DNA from: Dehalococcoidia bacterium
GTDB taxonomy: Bacteria > Chloroflexota > Dehalococcoidia > GIF9 > UBA5629
Direction of reading: 5' to 3'
DNA: 64,000 nt
NCBI GenBank assembly: GCA_034429715.1
Contig: DAOUFR010000058.1
Location: 7,811 to 71,810 of the forward strand
How positions within the stretch are numbered: the stretch's first letter is position 1; each line of letters opens with the position of its first letter. Shown piece by piece: positions 19,672 to 29,167 of this stretch. The position numbers and the translations under genes are program-made. The notes below the pieces were generated by a model that was not told the DNA's origin, did no database searches, and worked only from the letters and a program-made list of their open reading frames with translations.

Positions 19672-19702
19672 CGTTTGACTCTGTGTGATACAAATTATGC
19701 AT

Positions 19703-21331
19703 ATGCGGAATACAGCGGTCCGGCTCTTGATACTGCCGGTTGTTTTCATATCAGCGATGCTGTGCGGCTGCGGCAGCCCCGCGATCGTGGGTTCACTGGT
19801 GAAGGTGCAGGCCGACAATGCTGTCGTCAACGGCGTAATCATCGATCAGGCCGGCTATATAGCTACCGGCAGCGGCGCGCTGGGCGACTCCACCTCTCTA
19901 TCTGTTGAGCTCAAGCCCGGGCAGAGCTACGAGGGCCGTTTGGTCTGCAGGGACAGTGAGAGGGACCTGGCCCTGCTTAAAATAGAGGCGCCTGAGCTCA
20001 AGTCGGCTTTACCGGGAGATTCGGACCTTGTGCACCAATGGGATGAGGTGACTGTGTGGGGATTCAAGCCCGGCGATGCCGCTCCGATAGAGTCAAAGGG
20101 CAGCGTGACTTCATTGCCCAAAGACGAGCAGATTACCTATTTACAGACCAACGCAGCCCTGGACCCATCGCTGGCGGGAAGCGCCGTATTGAACAAGGCG
20201 GGCGAGATGGTCGGCATGGTTTCATGGAATGCCGACCAGCCGGGTCGCGAAGGGTTCGCGCTGACATCCAACGAGATACAAAGAGTGCTGGATCAGGCCG
20301 GGGAAGCGGAATCCAACCCGCTTGCCGTCGCTTCGGTCGATTCTCCTTCGGTCTTCAGCGATCGCGCGGTGATATCCTGGCAGACCAACCGGCCGGCAAC
20401 CGGCCAGGTTGAGTTCGGATTAAAAGGCTCTTACGGTAACAAGACAGCGCTGGACGCGACCATGCTGAACACACATGCGGCCGTGCTGCAGGGATTGGTA
20501 CCTAAAACGGCCTATTATTTCCGGGTGCTTTCCGTCGACTGTTGCGGCAATGCTGTGGCTTCAAAGGGATATACGCTCACGACCACAGCGGCCGGCGCCC
20601 AGGCGGGCGAGTTCACGATCTCGAATGTTGACGTATACGATATTACCAGCACAGCCGCTTCGGTGAGATGGATTACCAGCAAACCGGCTACGGGCGTCGT
20701 CAACTACACTGCGGATAAAGAAACCGAATCCGACAGCGAAATGGACAATAGCTTTGTGTACGAACATAAATTCAGGTTGAACGGCCTGTATCCTCAGACG
20801 CGCTACAGCGTGGCCATCAAGTCCGAAACTGATTTCGATGAGTCTGCGCAACAGACGTTGAATCCTTTCACGACACCGCCGACCTCCCCTGTTTGCTGCA
20901 AGATGAATTGCAAGATACTGGATTTCTCTTTTAAAACTCTCCAGGGCGATGATTTTACAAACAAAGACATCGCGGGAAAGAAGGTATTTATTGTTTTCAC
21001 CAAGACCACCTGCCCGAACTGCATGAAGCAGGCTCTTTTCCTCAACGACGTCTATCGCGACTGGCCGAAGGGGACCGATATGATGATGTTCATGGTGGCC
21101 AGCAGCGAGAAGCAAGCTGATGTCGAGGAGTGGATCAAGAAATACGGACTGGTCATGCCCGTTTATATAGATCCGACTGCGAAGCTGGTCAGCGGGTGCC
21201 AGTTCAGGACCATCCCCACGGCGCTCTTCCTGGATACGGGATCGGTCATAAGGGATTATAAGAGCGGCGGATTCGGTAATAGAAAGGATATGGAAGCTGC
21301 CCTGAAGTATTTTTATGAACAAGAGCGATAG
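19703..21331 (+). CDS. lipoprotein with an HtrA/trypsin-like domain (apparently catalytically dead), 2 x FN3 domains and a C-terminal TlpA-like thioredoxin domain
   Basis: A lipobox (AMLCGC) is present. The trypsin-like region aligns to HtrA with the catalytic His replaced by Gly (YIATGSGAL) and the catalytic Ser by Ala (DPSLAGSAV), while the Asp is kept (RDLALLKI). Two FN3/PAP-N-like repeats (VISWQTNRPATGQVEFG..., ASVRWITSKPATGVVNY...) follow. The redoxin domain carries CPNC. Confidence 0.6.
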   Translation: MRNTAVRLLILPVVFISAMLCGCGSPAIVGSLVKVQADNAVVNGVIIDQAGYIATGSGALGDSTSLSVELKPGQSYEGRLVCRDSERDLALLKIEAPELKSALPGDSDLVHQWDEVTVWGFKPGDAAPIESKGSVTSLPKDEQITYLQTNAALDPSLAGSAVLNKAGEMVGMVSWNADQPGREGFALTSNEIQRVLDQAGEAESNPLAVASVDSPSVFSDRAVISWQTNRPATGQVEFGLKGSYGNKTALDATMLNTHAAVLQGLVPKTAYYFRVLSVDCCGNAVASKGYTLTTTAAGAQAGEFTISNVDVYDITSTAASVRWITSKPATGVVNYTADKETESDSEMDNSFVYEHKFRLNGLYPQTRYSVAIKSETDFDESAQQTLNPFTTPPTSPVCCKMNCKILDFSFKTLQGDDFTNKDIAGKKVFIVFTKTTCPNCMKQALFLNDVYRDWPKGTDMMMFMVASSEKQADVEEWIKKYGLVMPVYIDPTAKLVSGCQFRTIPTALFLDTGSVIRDYKSGGFGNRKDMEAALKYFYEQER

Positions 21332-21395: not shown

Positions 21396-23147
21396 TTAAG
21401 ACCTGAACACGAAGCTGAGAGCGCCTGCGAGATCGATAGTGTCACCATCTTTAATCGCCTGCCTGCCTGTGCCCTTGATGGAGGACCCGTTCAGCCTGGT
21501 GCCGTTGGTGCTGCCACGGTCCTCGATGTAATACTGGCCGTTTTCATAGGAGACTGTGACATGTTGCCTGGATATAAGGTCTGCCTTATCCGGGGAAACC
21601 ATGTGCTGGAAGTCCCTTCGTCCCAGCGGCGCGTCACCCGCCAGCGAAAGTTCGCTTCCGTTGGAGGCAACGAATTTGGCCGCTGGACCGACGGGTACCG
21701 GCGAGGTTTTGGGAGAGCCTGTTGCCGGCAGAGTGGCTACGGGTGAAGTGACAGCAGGCATCGTGCCGGAGCGCCCGCCGCCGTAATGAACGGCCTGCGC
21801 AGCAGGTTTCCTCAGCAGAAGGATGACTATGATTATGGCGGCTGCGGCCAGCAGCGCAACGAGCAGGATATAGGGTAGCCACCATGACAGCGTGCCATTA
21901 CTGCTGCCGGCGGTGCTGACCGGGTCGGTGGCGGTGGAGGCGGCTTCGGTTGTGCCGCTATAGGTGCCGCCGGTGTAATAGGTGCTGCCGACATAGGGCG
22001 CCACCGTTACCGTGGTGCTGGCCACCCCCGAGCCTGCGCTGTTCGACGCGGTAAGTGTATAAGTGGTCGTGTAGGCGGGAGTTACAACGTACACTCCCGT
22101 ATTGGGCACCGAGCCAACCGAAGGCGATATGCTGACATTAGCCGTGTTGTTGACCGTCCATGACAGTGTGGATGATTGCCCCGGCTGGATATAGCTGGGA
22201 TTGGCCGTGAACGAGCTGATCACAGGCGCATAGACCGGAGAAGGTGTGGACGGCACCACCACGACAGGATAGCTACGATAGTAAGGTGTTACCCATGAGT
22301 TGGAGTACCACCGGTACCCGTAGGGATAGTATGGTGCAAAGGGATTATACGGATTGTATGGTGGCCTGTGTGGTGGCGGTGGCCCAGGGGGCGGCGGCCC
22401 GGGAGGCGGTGGCCCGGGAGGCGGTGGCCCGGGAGGTGGCGGCCCAGGAGGTGGTGGTCCTGGAGGAGGAGGCAATGGTGGAGGTGGAGGAGGTGGCATC
22501 GGCGGAGCAGGGAAAGAGTCCGGTCCCGGCACCGATATCGGTGGATGGACTTGGACTGTAATTGGCGATGAAGGTGGCAGAGGGGGTGGCGGGAGCGCAT
22601 CACCCGCAGGTGGTTCAGCCTGGGCGACCTGAATAGGCGGCTGAAGCTCCTCAGACACCTGTTCTGAAGAGGTAATAGCAGGGTCTTCAATTGCAGAATC
22701 CTGCGATGGGACGATAGGCTCGGAACCGGTTGCAACCGTGGTCTCGATCACCGGTTCAGGCAAAGGTGGAGGTGGTGGTGCGACCAACTCGGTAGTGGAC
22801 GCAACCGTGGTCTCGACCACCGGCGCGGGCGGCTCAGGAGTAGATGTAACCGTAGTCTCGACCACCGGAGCTACCGGATCAGGTGCAGACGCAACCGTGG
22901 TCTCGACCACCGGAGCTACCGGCTCGGGTGCAGATGCAACCGTGGTCTCTGCTACCGGCGCGGGTGGCTCAGGAGTAGATGTGATCGTGGCCTCTTCCAC
23001 AACAGCCGGGGTGGTTGTCTCTGTGGCTATGGAAGTTTCCGATGGCGCCGGTGCATCGTCCGCAGAGGCAGGTATCAGCGGCAGCATTAAGACAGAGCAG
23101 ACAAGAAGCGCTGCCGCCAGGAACTGAACAATTTTTTTAGCAGTCAT
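21396..23147 (-). CDS. membrane-anchored FHA-domain protein with a repetitive Pro-rich ectodomain, an Ig/PKD-like domain, one TM helix and a C-terminal cytoplasmic FHA domain (583 aa)
   Basis: A signal peptide is followed by about five copies of the 15-aa repeat ETTVASAPEPVAPVV, then (PPPGP)x6, a Tyr/Trp-rich segment and an Ig-like domain. The TM helix is LPYILLVALLAAAAIIIVILLL. The FHA motif is GRR...ISRQH...GSTNGTRLNG. A GAGGAGG RBS is present. Confidence 0.75.
   Translation of the reverse strand: MTAKKIVQFLAAALLVCSVLMLPLIPASADDAPAPSETSIATETTTPAVVEEATITSTPEPPAPVAETTVASAPEPVAPVVETTVASAPDPVAPVVETTVTSTPEPPAPVVETTVASTTELVAPPPPPLPEPVIETTVATGSEPIVPSQDSAIEDPAITSSEQVSEELQPPIQVAQAEPPAGDALPPPPLPPSSPITVQVHPPISVPGPDSFPAPPMPPPPPPPLPPPPGPPPPGPPPPGPPPPGPPPPGPPPPGPPPPHRPPYNPYNPFAPYYPYGYRWYSNSWVTPYYRSYPVVVVPSTPSPVYAPVISSFTANPSYIQPGQSSTLSWTVNNTANVSISPSVGSVPNTGVYVVTPAYTTTYTLTASNSAGSGVASTTVTVAPYVGSTYYTGGTYSGTTEAASTATDPVSTAGSSNGTLSWWLPYILLVALLAAAAIIIVILLLRKPAAQAVHYGGGRSGTMPAVTSPVATLPATGSPKTSPVPVGPAAKFVASNGSELSLAGDAPLGRRDFQHMVSPDKADLISRQHVTVSYENGQYYIEDRGSTNGTRLNGSSIKGTGRQAIKDGDTIDLAGALSFVFRS
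22381..22470. repeat. 6 x 15-bp tandem repeat (GGCCCGGGAGGCGGT) encoding PPPGP repeats on the minus strand
   Basis: The repeat units are directly visible in sequence. Confidence 0.8.
22738..23025. repeat. about 6 x 45-bp tandem repeat (four near-perfect copies at 22801-22980) encoding 15-aa ectodomain repeats
   Basis: The unit gcaaccgtggtctcgaccaccgg[a/c]gc... recurs at 45-nt period and is in-frame coding within the FHA583 gene. Confidence 0.8.
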
Positions 23148-23176: not shown

Positions 23177-24724
23177 CTATATTTTAAAGGTGATACTCAA
23201 TTTATCGGCCAGCTCAATGACATCGCCGTCCACGAGGGGTTGTTTGCCGCTGTCGCGGATCTCCGAACCGTTGAGCCTGGTGCCGTTTGTGCTGCCGGGA
23301 TCCTCGACGTAGTATTTTCCGTCCTCATACCATACGTTGATGTGCTGCCTTGAGATGAACGATGCTCTGTCCGACGGCAGCAGTTTTTCAAAGTCCTGGC
23401 GTCCGAGCGTCCTGGTATTGCCGGCCAGCAGCATCTCCCCGCCGTCGGGCATGATAAGTTTGGCGGGAGGAGCTTCTGTGATGGATGTGGACGCCCCCGA
23501 TGTGCCCGCAGTCGATGTAGCGGCGCTGGATGTAGCGGTACCCGCGCTTGCAGCCGATGTACGTGGCGACTTGGGAGAGCGGGGCTTTTTCACCATCATA
23601 ACGACTATTATTATGGCGGCTATAGCCAGCAGCGCCAGAAGTCCGTAAAGAAGGTAGAAGGGTTGCTCGACGGTGACGGTAACGGCTGCCGTCTGCGTCG
23701 TGCCGTCGATATAAGTGGCGGTGAGGCTATATGTAGTCGTTTGATTGGGCGCTACCATCGCTGTGCCCACGGCATCGAAATTACCCAGCCCGTCGATGTA
23801 TACCTGTAAGGCGGCGGGAGCGTTCCATGAAAGCGTGGTGGACTGTCCGGACTGTATGGTGGGTTGCTGCACGCTCAACGCAGGCGGCACCCTCGGTATA
23901 ACGTTAATGGTGGCGGAAGACGTCACCGTGCTTCCCGAGCTGCCCGTAGCCGACAGTGTGTAAGTGGTGGTCGCGCCGGGTGTGACAGTTGTCGATCCGG
24001 ATGTCCCCACCGTACCTATGCCGGGTGATATGATAACGCTGCTGGCGTTGCTCGTGGTCCAGGTCAGTGTGACGGTTTGTCCGACGTCTATAGACGATGC
24101 ATTTGCGCTGAAAGAATTGATCACGGGTTGATAGATCGGCCTGGGCGACGGCCCGCTGTAAGGTGAAATGCTGCCGCGTGCGTAATTGAAGCTCAGAGTA
24201 CGCTCCGACCAGGAGAAGCCGGAGTTGTACCACATCTTCCAGACATAGAGCCCGTCGGGATCCCATGACTCAGCACTGAACGGCCCGATGCGCCATACGC
24301 CCGCGTAAGGCCTGTACCATCTGTAACACAGCCAGTGCCCGTAGGGCGTGGTCCCTGACGGATAGTATTCCCACAGGTAGAAGTACCCCGGGCCGTTAAA
24401 GGAAACAAGCAGGTAGCACAGGTCGTTACGATAAAGATTGTAGAGCGTTTGCCCGTAGCTGGTTACCAGGTAGGCGTTTACGATGGACCCTGCTGCTCCT
24501 GCCGGAGGGGATGGCGGCACCGTCATCTGAAGGCTGGGCCAGGTCTGGTTGTAAGTGTCAACACCGACCGGCGGCTCGACCATTTCCCCGCCTTCGTCCG
24601 GCGGCTGCCAGCTTTCATCGGGATTAATTGGCGGTGATGGCTGTGCCTGAGCCGGCGAAAATACTGCAGCTGCGGCTGATAAAACCATGCACGCGATCAG
24701 CAGCGGTAAAACTATCTTTTTCAT
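23177..24724 (-). CDS. membrane-anchored FHA-domain protein with the Tyr/Trp-rich ectodomain and two Ig-like domains (515 aa)
   Basis: A signal peptide is followed by the shared motif block (YFYLWEYYPSG...WLCYRWYRPYAGVWRIGPF). Two Ig/PKD-like domains follow (PVINSFSANASSIDVGQTVTLTWTT..., PALSVQQPTIQSGQSTTLSW...). The TM helix is LLALLAIAAIIIVVMMV, and the FHA domain is C-terminal. Confidence 0.75.
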   Translation of the reverse strand: MKKIVLPLLIACMVLSAAAAVFSPAQAQPSPPINPDESWQPPDEGGEMVEPPVGVDTYNQTWPSLQMTVPPSPPAGAAGSIVNAYLVTSYGQTLYNLYRNDLCYLLVSFNGPGYFYLWEYYPSGTTPYGHWLCYRWYRPYAGVWRIGPFSAESWDPDGLYVWKMWYNSGFSWSERTLSFNYARGSISPYSGPSPRPIYQPVINSFSANASSIDVGQTVTLTWTTSNASSVIISPGIGTVGTSGSTTVTPGATTTYTLSATGSSGSTVTSSATINVIPRVPPALSVQQPTIQSGQSTTLSWNAPAALQVYIDGLGNFDAVGTAMVAPNQTTTYSLTATYIDGTTQTAAVTVTVEQPFYLLYGLLALLAIAAIIIVVMMVKKPRSPKSPRTSAASAGTATSSAATSTAGTSGASTSITEAPPAKLIMPDGGEMLLAGNTRTLGRQDFEKLLPSDRASFISRQHINVWYEDGKYYVEDPGSTNGTRLNGSEIRDSGKQPLVDGDVIELADKLSITFKI

Positions 24725-24891
24725 ATCTATAAAGCACCTCCAGGTGATCGTGTATCTTTATTAAGTATAAGGGCACATTACACCCTCTGCTTGACCCTGG
24801 CCTGACAGGTTCCTGACAAACACCTGATAAAAAGGCGGATGCTCGGATTGAACCAGGTACCGGGCAGGGCCCTCATGAGGAAATAAAGAGG

Positions 24892-26004
24892 TTAATGGTT
24901 GGATCGGAACTTCAGACTGGCCTTGCCGGCCATCTCGATAACGTCCCCGTCTTTCAATTCCAGTGGGCCTGAGTCACGAATACTGGCAGCATTGACGGCA
25001 GTGCCGTTGGCGCTGCCCATGTCTTCGATGAAAGCCTTCCCGTCTGTGAAGCTGATCTTAAAGTGCTGCTTTGATATCATCCCCAGCTCATCCAGTCCCA
25101 GCGACCTGGCGACCTGGGCGCGTCCGATTATCTCGCTTTCTTCACCCAGGCGAATCTTCAATCCGTTGGGTAATTCCAGGACGGCCCTGGCTGTGCCGTG
25201 CAGCGGCGCTTTTGGTGTAATACCCGGATGCTCGAGCAATTCCACCAGCGGCTGCTGCGTCATATTCCGGGCGTAATTCTGTTCGCGCAGGCGGCGTCGC
25301 CCATACAGTGCCAGGAGCACAATGACGACTATGGCGGAAGGGGCAATCAGCAGGAAAAGGGGATTGGTTATAAATTTCAGCAGGTTGTTGTCCGCTGTGT
25401 CAGGCTGTTCAGGTGTCGAGGGGGTGGCTGGCTGAGCCGGCTCTTCCGTGCCCTTGACATAGTTCCAGAAGACAAGGTGGCTTCTCTGCGCTTCGCTGCT
25501 GCCTGCCGCCCATTGTCCGTTTCCGTAAAAGAAGAGCCTGTAGATATGCTGGCCCTCCAGCTCGTCCTCGCCCGGCCGGAACGGCCCGAACCTCCATCGT
25601 CCCTGCTCTTTCAACTGCCATTTGTAGGCAATCCATCTGCCCTGGTCATATCTGTCCGACGGATAGTATTCATATATATACAACCAGCCCGGCATATTGA
25701 CATCGACATCGAGGTACCATTGCTCGTCGCCCGTGAAGGTGTCGCCGCCTTCGGCGGATATCCCATGTATGGTCGCAACCAGATCAGGCGATTCGCCTGA
25801 AGGCAGTGCAGTAGTGCTGTGCAATATGAAATTAACGGGCGGCTTAATCTCATTATGCTGGGTATCATCCATGGGATCCGGTATGGTGAAGTTGTCGGTA
25901 GGCGCCCCCATGGCATACGCGCATACATGTGTGAGGGCTACTGCGCTGAGGGAAGCGAACAGGACGGCCAGCGCAAATATCAATGCCGGTACCGGCCGTT
26001 TCAC
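24892..26004 (-). CDS. membrane-anchored FHA-domain protein with the Tyr/Trp-rich ectodomain (370 aa)
   Basis: A signal peptide is followed by the shared block (WLYIYEYYPSD...WIAYKWQLKEQGRWRFGPF). The TM helix is LFLLIAPSAIVVIVLLALY, and the FHA domain is C-terminal. The GTG start overlaps the kinase stop (GTGA). Confidence 0.75.
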   Translation of the reverse strand: MKRPVPALIFALAVLFASLSAVALTHVCAYAMGAPTDNFTIPDPMDDTQHNEIKPPVNFILHSTTALPSGESPDLVATIHGISAEGGDTFTGDEQWYLDVDVNMPGWLYIYEYYPSDRYDQGRWIAYKWQLKEQGRWRFGPFRPGEDELEGQHIYRLFFYGNGQWAAGSSEAQRSHLVFWNYVKGTEEPAQPATPSTPEQPDTADNNLLKFITNPLFLLIAPSAIVVIVLLALYGRRRLREQNYARNMTQQPLVELLEHPGITPKAPLHGTARAVLELPNGLKIRLGEESEIIGRAQVARSLGLDELGMISKQHFKISFTDGKAFIEDMGSANGTAVNAASIRDSGPLELKDGDVIEMAGKASLKFRSNH

Positions 26005-27017
26005 TTAGATACCCCCACTTCTTTCACCTCGCATTCGTTTGCAGACAGAAGTGCTGACCGCATGGCCGTGGCGCTGGCAAATCTGCTGCCCGGTGAAAAC
26101 ATAATGGCCTGGGCCAGGCAGCGTGATGTCCTTGCCGAGATACCCGCCGAGATCATGTAGTCCGCCACCTTGCCGGCCTCGGTGTAGCTCCGCGGCCAGT
26201 TGGTGCGGATCAGCTCGGTGCACAGATCGTTGGGCTGTCTGAGCGTGAGCAGGTAGATACAGGTCTGCGCCAGGCCGCACAGGTCGCAACGCTGGTCGCT
26301 CTCGCCGCCTATGAATAATTCAGGTATATCGAAACCCTTGTTGGCTATCTGGGTGAAGGGATCCGTCTTGACCGTGTCCCTTTTCATGCTCTCCAGGCTT
26401 TTGGCCGTGCCGAAGTCGATCAGTTTGATGCCGCCGTTTCCGCTGAGCATGATGTTCTTGGGATTGACGTCCCTGTGCACAATACCCGCGGCGTGGATAT
26501 AGGCCAGGGCGTCCAGCGCCTGTCCGGCCCAGGCCAGGAGCTTCTGCTCACCGGCCGATGTCCTGGGAGAGGACGACATGACAGGTTCACCTGTTACGAG
26601 CTCCAGTACCAGGTGGAATTCCCCTTTGTAATAGAAATCATCAAGGTATGTGACTATATTGGGATGCTGCAGCCTTTTGAGGAAAGCGGCTTCCTGGCGT
26701 AGCTTGTCCAGATAAACATTGTCCATGGTGGTGCCCCTGCGGGGCGTCTTGATGATGCATTTCTTACCGCTGGTGCGGTCCCTGGCCAGCCAGATGTTTG
26801 CCATGCCTCCTTGTTTGAAGGCCGGTGCTTTAAGCTCGTAGCGGCTGTTGATGCGGTGCTTGCGTTCAGGCTGGGCCTGCTGTTGCGTCGGCCTGCCCTG
26901 GCGCCGGGCTGAGGCGTTCGCCTTGTGCCGCTGGACCGCCTGGATAATAGCCACTGTGACCGGTATGCTGGTGAAGATCAGTGCAAAGACTATGACAAAG
27001 ATGGTCGGATCGTCCAT
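26001..27017 (-). CDS. Ser/Thr protein kinase (Hanks-type, atypical motifs) with an N-terminal TM helix
   Basis: Subdomain motifs are present: ANIWLARD...KCIIK (Lys), HRDVNPKNIM (catalytic loop) and DFGTAK. The N-terminal TM helix is IFVIVFALIFTSIPVTVAIIQAV. The ATG overlaps the PP2C stop by 1 nt (TGATG). The track ORF is extended spuriously upstream. Confidence 0.8.
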   Translation of the reverse strand: MDDPTIFVIVFALIFTSIPVTVAIIQAVQRHKANASARRQGRPTQQQAQPERKHRINSRYELKAPAFKQGGMANIWLARDRTSGKKCIIKTPRRGTTMDNVYLDKLRQEAAFLKRLQHPNIVTYLDDFYYKGEFHLVLELVTGEPVMSSSPRTSAGEQKLLAWAGQALDALAYIHAAGIVHRDVNPKNIMLSGNGGIKLIDFGTAKSLESMKRDTVKTDPFTQIANKGFDIPELFIGGESDQRCDLCGLAQTCIYLLTLRQPNDLCTELIRTNWPRSYTEAGKVADYMISAGISARTSRCLAQAIMFSPGSRFASATAMRSALLSANECEVKEVGVSK

Positions 27018-27820
27018 CAGACTGTTTTTACCCCCGTCTTTGCCGACACCAGTGCCTGCCAGGAGGGGAGGCCGCCGGGTTGGGCGATGATAACCGATAT
27101 GTTGTCGGGGCCGCCGGCCAGGTTGGCCCGGGAGATCAGGTCCGCGCAGGCCTGCCGCGGACTCTGCGAGGCAAGCACCGTTTCCTCGATTCTGCCAGCA
27201 GGGAGCACCCCGCACAGGCCGTCCGAGCACAGCAATATGTTGTCCCCGGCATAAAGCTTGATTTGTATCAGGTCCGGCAGGCTATTATCATTGTAACCCA
27301 GCACGCGTGTTATCTCGTTGCGGCGCGGATGTGTCAGGGCTTCCTCCGCCGATATATCACCGGTATCTACCAGCTCCTGCACCACGGAATGGTCCGTTGT
27401 GACCTGAATGATCTCCCTGGTGTTGATAATGTAACAGCGGGAATCCCCTATGTGGGCAACGTACATATCCTGCCCTGTAATAAGGGCCGCGGTGAGAGTG
27501 GTGCCCATACCCTGCAGCGACTTTTCTGTTGCAGCTTCGAGGACGGCGTTGTTAGCCTTGCTGAAAGCCGAGGCCATCAGCGGCAATCCGGGCGCCGTCT
27601 GCCGAGCCAGCAGTCCGGAGATACATTCGACCTGGAAAATCCTGATAGCCAGGTCGCTGGCGATTTCCCCTGCTTCGTGTCCGCCCATGCCGTCCGCCAC
27701 CGCGAACAGACCGGCAGATACCGTACCTGAATTAGTATGCAGGTCGAAGGTGCTGTAGAAAACACTGTCTTCGTTGAGTTTTCTCACCAGGCCGGTGTCC
27801 CAGCCGTAACCTATCTCCAA
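27017..27820 (-). CDS. PP2C-family Ser/Thr protein phosphatase
   Basis: Metal-binding motifs are present (NEDS, FAVADGMGGHEAGEIAS, DG...D). An AAGGAG RBS precedes the TTG start. Confidence 0.85.
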   Translation of the reverse strand: MEIGYGWDTGLVRKLNEDSVFYSTFDLHTNSGTVSAGLFAVADGMGGHEAGEIASDLAIRIFQVECISGLLARQTAPGLPLMASAFSKANNAVLEAATEKSLQGMGTTLTAALITGQDMYVAHIGDSRCYIINTREIIQVTTDHSVVQELVDTGDISAEEALTHPRRNEITRVLGYNDNSLPDLIQIKLYAGDNILLCSDGLCGVLPAGRIEETVLASQSPRQACADLISRANLAGGPDNISVIIAQPGGLPSWQALVSAKTGVKTV

Positions 27821-27842
27821 TCAAATCTCCTTCATTTGCATA

Positions 27843-28334
27843 TTAGCTCAACCGGAAGATGAGTGTGGCTCCCGGCTGTCTGGCCAGCTCTATACTATCT
27901 CCGTCCCTGAGAGCCTGCCTGCCTTTATGGTGGATATCGATATTGTTTACCCGTGTGTGATTGGTGCTTCCGGTGCCGTCGCGCCCGTGGTCCTGGACAA
28001 AATAAGTGCCGTTCTCGCGCGTAACGAGCAGATGCTGTCTGGAGATGCTCATCAGCGCATCTTGCGAGAGTTTGCCCTCGAAGTTACTGCGCTGAATGAA
28101 CTGGGAATTGTCCGCCAGAGTGATCTCCTCGCCTCCCGGCATGATCATCCTGGCCACGGCTCCCTGCGCTGCAGCTTCCGCAGCCTCTTCCATGACGGTG
28201 TCGTTGCTTGTACATTCCTTTTCGTCCGCCAGGTAATGCCCGCAGCTGTAACAGAAAAAGCTGCCGGCCCCGTTCAAGCCCTGGCAGGCCGGGCAGATGA
28301 CGCTGACGCTGATTACCTCTTCCATTACGATCAC
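27843..28334 (-). CDS. zinc-ribbon + FHA domain protein (163 aa), first gene of the kinase/phosphatase operon
   Basis: The N-terminus carries CPACQG...CYSCGH (4-Cys zinc ribbon), and the C-terminus an FHA domain (SRQHLLV...GSTNHTRVNN). Confidence 0.7.
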   Translation of the reverse strand: MIVMEEVISVSVICPACQGLNGAGSFFCYSCGHYLADEKECTSNDTVMEEAAEAAAQGAVARMIMPGGEEITLADNSQFIQRSNFEGKLSQDALMSISRQHLLVTRENGTYFVQDHGRDGTGSTNHTRVNNIDIHHKGRQALRDGDSIELARQPGATLIFRLS

Positions 28335-28364
28335 ATCATTCTAGTCTGCTGAAAAACCGACTGC

Positions 28365-28393
28365 TTGACAGCTTTCTGACGAATACCTAATAT
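28365..28393 (+). promoter_or_regulatory. sigma70-like promoter (TTGACA-17-TAATAT) for the FHA/winged-helix regulator gene
   Basis: TTGACA sits at 28365-28370 and TAATAT at 28388-28393, in a divergent intergenic region shared with the kinase operon. Confidence 0.45.
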
Positions 28394-28483
28394 AAATCTG
28401 ACATATATATTCAATGTGATGGTTGCCCTTGATATATTATACTGCAAGAGGAAATACAGCCTGCATATAGCAGGAGGCCCGTT

Positions 28484-29167
28484 GTGGCTTTTATTATAGT
28501 CAAGAAAGGCGATGCCGAAGACATCGGCAAGATTTTTACCCTCAGGCAGGCTGCCACGGTAGTCGGCCGGCGTACTCCCCAGTATAAGCCGGATATCGAA
28601 TTAAACGACGAGGCGGTATCCAGACGGCATTGCGAGATACTGGAAAAAGAAGGCCATTATCAGATAAGAGACCTGGGCAGCACGAACGGGACCGTGCTCA
28701 ACGACGACAGGATACTGTCGGGCAGGTTATATGACCTGAAACACAATTGCAAGATCGGGCTTGGTATGGCAGTAGGGCCGGCGCATTCCCTTTTGATATT
28801 CAAAGAGACGGAGAGCACCAATTTACTGGGGGGAAAGGGGGCAGGAGCAAGCCAGAAAGCTGTAGCGATGGATGTTAGCTGGCTCAAAATTGATGAGGCC
28901 AAGAAAGAGGTGCATGTGGACGGCGAGCCTGTGAAACTATCGCGCAAAGAGTACGAATTACTTAGTTATCTCTACGAAAACGCCGGTGTGGTCTGCCTGC
29001 GCGACGAGATTATCAAAGCCGTATGGTTCGATAGTCTGGACCCGGCCGCCATATCGGATGCGACGCTCGACCAGCTCGTGCACCGACTGCGGGAGAAGAT
29101 AGAACCCGACACCGCCAACCCCACCCGCATTATCAGCCGCAAGGCCTTCGGATACATGCTGGTATAA
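28484..29167 (+). CDS. FHA domain fused to an OmpR/PhoB-type winged-helix DNA-binding domain (transcription factor)
   Basis: The N-terminal FHA domain is GRR...VSRRHCEI...GSTNGTVLND. The C-terminal trans_reg_C-like region is VHVDGEPVKLSRKEYELLSYLYENAGVVCLRDEI...FGYMLV. AGGAGG precedes the GTG start. Confidence 0.7.
   Translation: MAFIIVKKGDAEDIGKIFTLRQAATVVGRRTPQYKPDIELNDEAVSRRHCEILEKEGHYQIRDLGSTNGTVLNDDRILSGRLYDLKHNCKIGLGMAVGPAHSLLIFKETESTNLLGGKGAGASQKAVAMDVSWLKIDEAKKEVHVDGEPVKLSRKEYELLSYLYENAGVVCLRDEIIKAVWFDSLDPAAISDATLDQLVHRLREKIEPDTANPTRIISRKAFGYMLV

Follow-up and report, generated by a model that had tools for sequence, protein, structure and literature searches.

In bacteria, the routes that lead from a Ser/Thr kinase to transcription are mostly indirect, and run either through the cross-phosphorylation of response regulators or through SARPs of the EmbR type. 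EmbR of Mycobacterium tuberculosis is the closest known protein in which an OmpR-type winged helix-turn-helix (wHTH) and an FHA domain stand together under Ser/Thr-kinase control; it is a SARP with the order wHTH-BTAD-FHA and a substrate of the kinase PknH, and its FHA domain is needed for the interaction with the kinase (PMC4601284, PMC6213207). FHA domains have also been joined to other outputs. Enhancer-binding proteins that carry FHA domains were reported for Myxococcus xanthus (Jelsbak, Givskov and Kaiser 2005, as cited in PMC4320627), and in DgcB of Bdellovibrio, an FHA-GGDEF protein, a phosphothreonine peptide that comes from the tail of the protein itself, and has a hydrophobic residue at the +3 position, activates the N-terminal FHA domain (PMC6733907). 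The gene described here, at 28484..29167 on the + strand of a 64,000-nucleotide stretch of contig DAOUFR010000058.1 from a Dehalococcoidia bacterium (the whole stretch being called the window), encodes a regulator of 227 aa in which an FHA domain is followed by an OmpR/PhoB-type wHTH. It is divergent from an operon for a Hanks-type Ser/Thr kinase, a PP2C-type phosphatase and further FHA proteins, and comparison of related loci makes it probable that the regulator is the dedicated transcription factor of this module, with the FHA domain taking the place of a receiver, with two arrays of direct repeats as its binding sites, and with its activity set by the kinase and the phosphatase.

Domain architecture and homologues of the regulator

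The preliminary description of this DNA, made from the sequence alone, had proposed that the protein joins an FHA domain to an OmpR-type wHTH without a receiver, and had called for a check by domain annotation. This annotation bears the architecture out. The gene begins with a GTG codon that has GGAGG 7 nt on its 5′ side, and Pfam places the FHA domain at residues 25-94 (E 2.7e-17, profile positions 1-67 of 67, 63.4 bits against a cut-off of 20.7) and Trans_reg_C, likewise over its full length, at residues 147-226 (E 1.9e-18, profile positions 1-77 of 77, 66.7 bits against a cut-off of 26.2). The same scan gave no match to Response_reg or to BTAD, so the protein is without a receiver and without a BTAD domain. 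The NCBIfam models of the response regulators PhoB, RpaB and YycF align through their C-terminal DNA-binding part only, from about profile position 119, and those of the FHA proteins OdhI and FhaB align with the N-terminus. In a sequence comparison with solved structures, the DNA-binding domains of RegX3, VicR and WalR matched residues ~130-226 (E 4e-12 to 7e-11) and GarA/OdhI matched residues 2-81; the structure of EmbR gave a weak match through its FHA domain only (E 2.4e-4), and no solved chain that matched both domains was found in this comparison.

An AlphaFold model, calculated from an alignment of 30 sequences, has a mean predicted local distance difference test score (pLDDT) of 79 and a predicted template modelling score (pTM) of 0.52, and predicts no fixed packing between the domains. 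Residues 1-108 (28484-28807, + strand) form the FHA beta-sandwich, with strands between residues 2 and 108, the last of them at 102-108. A disordered linker follows at residues 110-130 (pLDDT <50), and residues 131-227 (28874-29164, + strand) form the wHTH, with strands at 134-137, 142-145 and 148-150, helices at 154-165, 173-180 and 192-206, and a hairpin at 216-219/223-226, i.e., the N-terminal beta-sheet, three helices and C-terminal wing of the OmpR-type fold. With Foldseek, the best FHA matches were GarA, OdhI, FhaA and the Bdellovibrio DgcB; against the FHA domains of GarA, OdhI and DgcB the N-terminal domain gave target-normalised template modelling scores of 0.83-0.94 and a root-mean-square deviation of 1.4-2.0.

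The protein thus composed differs from a two-component response regulator, which has a receiver with a phospho-accepting Asp, and from the SARP/EmbR family, in which an N-terminal wHTH is followed by a BTAD. Here the wHTH is C-terminal, so that the reversal of domain order relative to EmbR, pointed out in the preliminary description, is real, and the BTAD is missing as well. With an FHA domain and a wHTH only, and no phosphotransfer domain, it is a one-component regulator, the input of which is a phosphoprotein epitope and not a small ligand, and which is functionally placed downstream of a kinase.

In a sequence search and in a profile search alike, the best 120 matches were all 221-236 aa long and had the same Pfam set, and both domains were found in 257 of the 262 collected homologues of 190-260 aa. 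Because the homologues share this length and Pfam set, the possibility raised earlier that the reading frame consists of two genes joined by a frameshift is excluded. The spread of the combination, for which a survey had been suggested at the outset, was followed with an exhaustive search of 1.84 billion cluster representatives, which gave 14 matches at E<=1e-30 and 663 at E<=1e-10. About 60 of the best 150 were, by hand count, full-length two-domain proteins of 200-250 aa with 27-44% identity, and the FHA-wHTH fusion is therefore a family with many sub-lineages. The closest relatives of the regulator (88-93% identity) come from metagenome-assembled genomes (MAGs) of Dehalococcoidia. All members with a named source belong to Chloroflexota/Dehalococcoidia, except for one MAG labelled Planctomycetota; most clusters of distant homologues carry no source name, and the named distant ones are Chloroflexota. 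In the databases, the members bear no more specific label than “FHA domain-containing” or “winged helix-turn-helix domain-containing” protein, and a literature search, with most subscription journals beyond its reach, found no publication on a fusion of FHA with Trans_reg_C or with an OmpR-type domain. Armatimonadota had been considered as distant carriers of the fusion and were rejected. Their loci (Fimbriimonadaceae; L050:7719-9461, which was read, as well as L049, L055, L058, L066, L067, L077 and L081) had come into the locus set through FHA similarity only, and encode a zinc-ribbon + FHA + FHA protein directly before PP2C, without a winged helix.

Synteny with the kinase module and the repeat arrays

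The six proteins of the cluster were compared by tblastn with 48 orthologous loci, 46 of them distinct, in which the regulator has 58-93% identity. The divergent arrangement of the regulator gene and the kinase operon was found in 46/46 distinct loci, contig ends being the only limit, and the operon consists in each case of genes for a zinc-ribbon-FHA protein, the PP2C and a membrane-anchored kinase, followed by two or three membrane proteins with FHA domains. The other flank of the regulator varies from locus to locus, and holds a gene for an enoyl-CoA hydratase, a glycogen phosphorylase or a 3-hydroxyacyl-CoA dehydrogenase. More distant fused homologues (33-49% identity) also adjoin genes for Ser/Thr kinases: P0124 (43%) is divergent from a Pkinase gene, P0189 (33%, from a Chloroflexi MAG) lies within a Pkinase / Laminin_G / FHA-wHTH / FHA cluster, and P0286 (49%, locus L087:1-5088) is divergent from a different kinase, of 445 aa and with a BACON-like region, after which comes an FHA-FHA-ABC transporter. 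It is mainly because the divergent synteny is kept, and because the distant homologues are linked to kinases as well, that the regulator is thought to work with a Ser/Thr kinase, and the functional tie to the adjacent kinase/PP2C module proposed in the preliminary description has in this way gained strong comparative support. The FHA-FHA-ABC transporter of L087 resembles the mycobacterial Rv1747.

The intergenic region between the regulator gene and the operon had been given as 149 bp, which is right if the divergent zinc-ribbon-FHA gene starts at the GTG at 28334; from the ATG at 28325, the start chosen by gene callers in homologues, it measures 158 bp. The TTGACA-17-TAATAT promoter described earlier is present at 28365..28393 (+ strand, 10/12 matches in a promoter scan). 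Both of its + strand hexamers, TTGACA (28365-28370) and TAATAT (28388-28393), are part of a larger element, site A, which is made up of four 11-bp units, TTGACAGCTTT / CTGACGAATAC / CTAATATAAAT / CTGACATATAT, at 28365..28408 (+ strand). This block of ~44 bp, TGCTTGACAGCTWTCTGACRAATACCTAATATRAATCTGAYA, is near-invariant in 45 distinct orthologous sequences, and its flanks are variable. The units begin with (C/T)TGAC(A/G), so that the minus (operon) strand reads CTGTCAG, of the TGTCA type and pho-box-like. The third unit is CTAATAT except in L031 and in the metagenome locus L110, where a regular CTGACA unit takes its place. Site A is also kept in L087, despite the otherwise different gene content of that locus.

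The pattern TGACR-N6-TGACR has two matches in the window, against 0.25 expected, and the second of them lies between the genes for the 370-aa and the 515-aa FHA proteins. There, upstream of the 515-aa FHA gene, four 11-bp units, TTGACCCTGGC / CTGACAGGTTC / CTGACAAACAC / CTGATAAAAAG, form site B at 24791..24834 (+ strand), which is conserved in 40 distinct sequences with the consensus CTGC followed by the units TTGACC..., CTGACAGGT.., CTGACAGTT.. and CTGAYAAAA; again ~44 bp are near-invariant between variable flanks. Site B is absent from L017 and L039, the two loci that are without the 515-aa FHA gene. When the window was scanned with a position matrix of the 11-bp unit, three phased units being scored together, sites A and B reached 35.1 and 22.2, compared with -0.2 for the next best position and a maximum of 14.6 after shuffling, and in 722 kb of related loci sites A and B, both per locus, were the only arrays that scored >=15.

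Both arrays are followed at the same distance by a -10-like hexamer on the minus strand that has no -35: TAGAAT at 28338..28343, for the kinase operon, and TATACT at 24764..24769, the predicted promoter of the 515-aa FHA gene, are each separated by 21 nt from the proximal repeat of their array (site A and site B, respectively). A hexamer of the form TAnnnT (TAGACT, TAGAAT etc.) stands at exactly this offset from site A in 41/46 sequences, and TATATT, TATACT or TATAGT at the same offset from site B in 40/40. The mean number of matches to TATAAT is 4.48 at the 21-nt offset versus 1.0-2.8 elsewhere, and the signal is lost by a shift of one base. Because the -35 position reads AAGCAn and the array lies at a fixed offset upstream, both promoters look activator-dependent, with the array spanning about -39 to -82. 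The OmpR sites at ompF and ompC likewise end near -40. PhoB makes contact with two tandem repeats of 11 bp that each contain a TGTCA tract, and the consensus half-site is CTGTCAT (PMC4447250). Since the arrays are like the sites of PhoB in repeat phase and core, and like those of OmpR in position, they would be expected, by analogy, to be the target of an OmpR/PhoB-type domain. As TTGACA and TAATAT are both inside site A, occupancy of the array should at the same time occlude the regulator promoter.

Whether the arrays belong to this regulator or to another one has to be weighed here, as the operon-strand CTGTCAG at 11-bp phase is nearly the E. coli pho-box half-site CTGTCAT, and similar arrays stand beside unrelated OmpR-family genes. 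They might accordingly be ordinary pho boxes, or sites of some other OmpR/PhoB-family regulator encoded elsewhere, with the FHA-wHTH protein binding different targets. This is quite unlikely, however, given that arrays occur at these two positions only in 722 kb of flanking sequence, that site A stays with the regulator gene in L087, although the other genes there differ, and that no other OmpR-type wHTH is encoded in the 64-kb window. A metagenome scan for three phased CTGACA repeats, as a way to a wider regulon, was given up as too generic, with 4/120 among the listed loci belonging to the module. In two unrelated metagenome contigs (L090:1572-2301 and L157:7303-8590), three such phased repeats lie within ~0.4-1 kb of ordinary OmpR-family winged-helix genes, which is consistent with the CTGACA-type repeat being a common OmpR/PhoB-family operator.

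Two further elements lie between site A and the regulator gene. Block 2, ATTATACTGCAA (28436..28447, + strand; ATTATACTRCA at 28436..28446), occurs throughout the Dehalococcoidia orthologous loci; its distance to the start codon is 47-49 nt in 29/40 loci, and that to site A is variable. It is -10-like on either strand, without a -35, and is possibly a second or alternative -10 (TATACT) for the regulator gene. As candidate for the regulator promoter, TTGACA-17-TAATAT is nearly universal but is replaced in L031 and L110, and the TATACT of block 2 is the alternative candidate. The palindrome CCTGC-ATATA-GCAGG, described earlier at the ribosome-binding site, is indeed there (28460..28474, + strand) and overlaps the Shine-Dalgarno sequence, but it occurs in the closest relatives only, and RNAalifold found no consensus pairs and no covarying structure in 21 leaders. 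It was therefore rejected as a regulatory hairpin, and is probably lineage-specific and not a conserved regulatory element. Rfam gave no match to a known RNA element at E<=1 over 24650-28560. The view that the shared region serves auto- or cross-regulation thus draws its support from the four CTGACA direct repeats and from the second array within the operon, and not from the palindrome.

The phosphothreonine pocket, the linker threonine and the proposed mechanism

In 177/177 orthologues there is no change in the residues that bind phosphothreonine in FHA domains (G28, R29, S46, R47, H49, S66 and N68), and the regulator should for this reason be able to bind phosphothreonine through its FHA domain. 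At the other end of the protein, R201 and R203 of the recognition helix are kept even in distant homologues. Between the domains, Thr112 (codon at 28817..28819, + strand), within the linker motif E-x-T-N-[ILV]-[ILM], is a candidate phospho-acceptor and FHA ligand, and hence a candidate phospho-switch. It is likewise invariant in 177/177 orthologues, the +3 residue is Ile, Leu or Met in 176/177, and among 79 distant fused homologues Thr112 is present in 63, the same count as for R29 of the pocket (63/79). The chain termini of FHA domains lie opposite the loops that bind phosphothreonine, and Chk2 provides a precedent for the reading of phosphothreonine by FHA domains in trans. As Thr112 is situated in the disordered part of the linker, only ~4 residues past the last FHA strand (102-108), its phosphorylated form would more likely be read in trans than in cis. 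FHA domains commonly read the +3 residue (PMC6733907).

The mechanism that these observations suggest is as follows. The winged helix would bind the two arrays, in which four direct repeats (CTGTCAG when read on the operon strand) follow one another at 11-bp phase, and thereby activate the two -35-less promoters, one for the zinc-ribbon-FHA/PP2C/kinase/FHA370 genes and the other for the FHA515/FHA583 genes (the numbers standing for the lengths of the membrane FHA proteins), whereas occupancy of site A would simultaneously repress the regulator's own TTGACA/TAATAT promoter. The FHA domain would make this activity depend on the balance between kinase and phosphatase, most likely in that the adjacent kinase phosphorylates Thr112 of the linker and PP2C reverses the reaction. 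A second subunit may then use its FHA domain to bind the phosphorylated Thr112 in trans, and the dimers or head-to-tail chains that result would be suited to tandem repeats. In its most elaborate form, which is put forward tentatively and is rather doubtful, the proposal would make the cluster a complete Hanks-kinase counterpart of a two-component system, in which each phosphorylated Thr112 is read by the FHA domain of the next subunit, a head-to-tail chain lays four winged helices on the four 11-bp repeats, polymerisation through FHA domains replaces the dimerisation of receivers, and a single event turns the kinase operon on and the regulator promoter off.

The threonine could act differently, as the FHA domain of the regulator is closest in sequence and fold to GarA/OdhI, which use an intramolecular switch (PMC4601284). 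In an arrangement of this kind, phosphorylated Thr112 would fold into the FHA pocket of its own chain and turn the protein off or on without oligomerisation. Such cis autoinhibition is highly improbable, since the closeness of Thr112 to strand 102-108, with the termini opposite the binding loops, makes the reach in cis sterically unlikely, and the phospho-site of GarA/OdhI is on a long N-terminal tail, unlike that in the linker here. It is also conceivable that Thr112 is not the switch at all, and that the FHA domain docks the regulator on phosphothreonines of the membrane kinase, or of the linkers of the membrane-FHA proteins, so that the kinase keeps the regulator at the membrane, away from the DNA, and PP2C frees it to bind the arrays. 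Such sequestration would suit the intact pocket and the make-up of the cluster, where a membrane-anchored kinase is accompanied by three membrane proteins whose cytoplasmic linkers are Ser/Thr-rich, and EmbR docks on PknH via its FHA domain (PMC4601284). Yet it leaves the invariance of Thr112 and of the hydrophobic +3 residue unexplained, and it does not supply the induced oligomerisation that OmpR-family domains usually need on tandem repeats; sequestration is thus an unlikely, if less remote, alternative.

Several points weigh against the regulator as the dedicated, phospho-controlled factor of the two arrays. The repeats resemble generic pho boxes, which some other OmpR/PhoB-family regulator of the genome could bind, and CTGACA arrays are also found beside ordinary OmpR-family genes in metagenomes. 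The predicted minus-strand -10 at site A is so near to where the zinc-ribbon-FHA gene is annotated to start that its transcript would have almost no leader, and the spacing is awkward in some loci. The regulator promoter is ambiguous, in that L031 and L110 have a repeat in the place of TAATAT and block 2 is another conserved -10-like sequence. Lastly, the conservation of Thr112 could be structural rather than regulatory, and the AlphaFold model is silent on phospho-dependent contacts.

The gene cluster and its relation to known systems

The genes on the kinase side are all on the minus strand, and the neighbourhood of kinase, PP2C and FHA genes reported in the preliminary description agrees with their Pfam matches. 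The order is zinc-ribbon-FHA, PP2C, kinase and the 370-aa FHA protein, then, after a gap of 167 bp, the 515-aa and the 583-aa FHA proteins. The first gene of the divergent operon (27843..28325) encodes the zinc-ribbon + FHA protein, of 160 aa from the ATG at 28325. It is followed by the PP2C-type Ser/Thr phosphatase (27017..27820, 267 aa) and the Hanks-type Ser/Thr kinase (26001..27017, 338 aa from the ATG at 27017), both assigned with Pfam and tblastn. The mechanical reading frame of the kinase (26001-27230) runs to 409 aa from an upstream GTG; the homologues begin at the ATG. The kinase is anchored by a membrane helix at its N-terminus and lacks an extracellular sensor domain, and its HRD and DFG motifs are intact in the translation. 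Its start overlaps the stop codon of the PP2C gene, and its own stop lies within a 4-nt overlap with the gene that follows; these overlapping starts and stops suggest translational coupling of the PP2C, kinase and 370-aa FHA genes.

Next in line are two membrane proteins with a C-terminal FHA domain, of 370 aa (24892..26004) and 515 aa (23177..24724), again assigned with Pfam and tblastn, and a third of 583 aa (21396..23147) with a proline-rich exterior. On its outer side, the last has long repeats rich in proline (PPPPGPPPPG...) as well as VETTVAS units that recur. The 515-aa and 370-aa proteins share an extracellular Trp/Tyr-rich motif (..Y.WEYYPS...W..Y.W....G.WR.GPF) with no Pfam match, and their extracellular parts are probably paralogous sensor or surface domains. 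Altogether six FHA domains are encoded in the cluster around a single kinase. The convergent neighbour (19685-21331, + strand) encodes a secreted protein of 548 aa with an unusual combination of a trypsin-like protease, fibronectin-III-like domains and, at the C-terminus, an AhpC/redoxin domain.

Within 8 kb, a single kinase, a single phosphatase and the FHA-wHTH factor of 227 aa, together with the two predicted operators, would make a minimal, self-contained route from Ser/Thr phosphorylation to transcription, in a compact arrangement that is conserved across an uncultured clade of Dehalococcoidia. For the operators, the residues of the FHA pocket and Thr112, the predictions are concrete and open to tests in vitro, for which the host need not be cultured, and the arrangement suggests how the FHA-rich kinase clusters of Chloroflexota may feed back on their own expression.

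The regulator is uncharacterised, and yet its parts and its logic are familiar from several described systems. By sequence and fold, its FHA domain is closest to the actinobacterial GarA/OdhI, which are kinase substrates with a self-binding phosphothreonine; these, however, are stand-alone FHA proteins without a DNA-binding domain, regulate metabolic enzymes and carry the phospho-site on an N-terminal extension. DgcB, a structural match to the FHA domain here, likewise has its sensory FHA domain at the N-terminus, fused to an output domain, and is a precedent for a self-derived phospho-ligand, but its output is a diguanylate cyclase and its phospho-site is on the N-terminal tail and not on an interdomain linker. 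In the FHA enhancer-binding proteins of M. xanthus, as they appear in the citing paper, an N-terminal FHA domain occupies the receiver position of an NtrC-type protein and links a Ser/Thr kinase to transcription; in that other phylum, a sigma-54 AAA+ activator that bears a Fis-type HTH forms the output. On the output side, PhoB, RegX3 and WalR/VicR are the best Trans_reg_C matches, and 11-bp tandem repeats with a TGTCA core upstream of -35-less promoters are the predicted operators here. In contrast to the PhoB/OmpR family, the regulator has no receiver, no phospho-Asp and no histidine kinase partner, and has instead an FHA input beside a Hanks-type kinase and PP2C, so that an OmpR-type output is coupled to a phosphothreonine reader in the place of a receiver. 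EmbR, finally, likewise unites an OmpR-type winged helix with an FHA domain in a single chain, with Ser/Thr-kinase control of DNA binding in the case of EmbR; it differs in its opposite domain order, its BTAD, its SARP-type wHTH and its chain of 388 aa, against the 227 aa and the response-regulator-type wHTH of the Dehalococcoidia protein.

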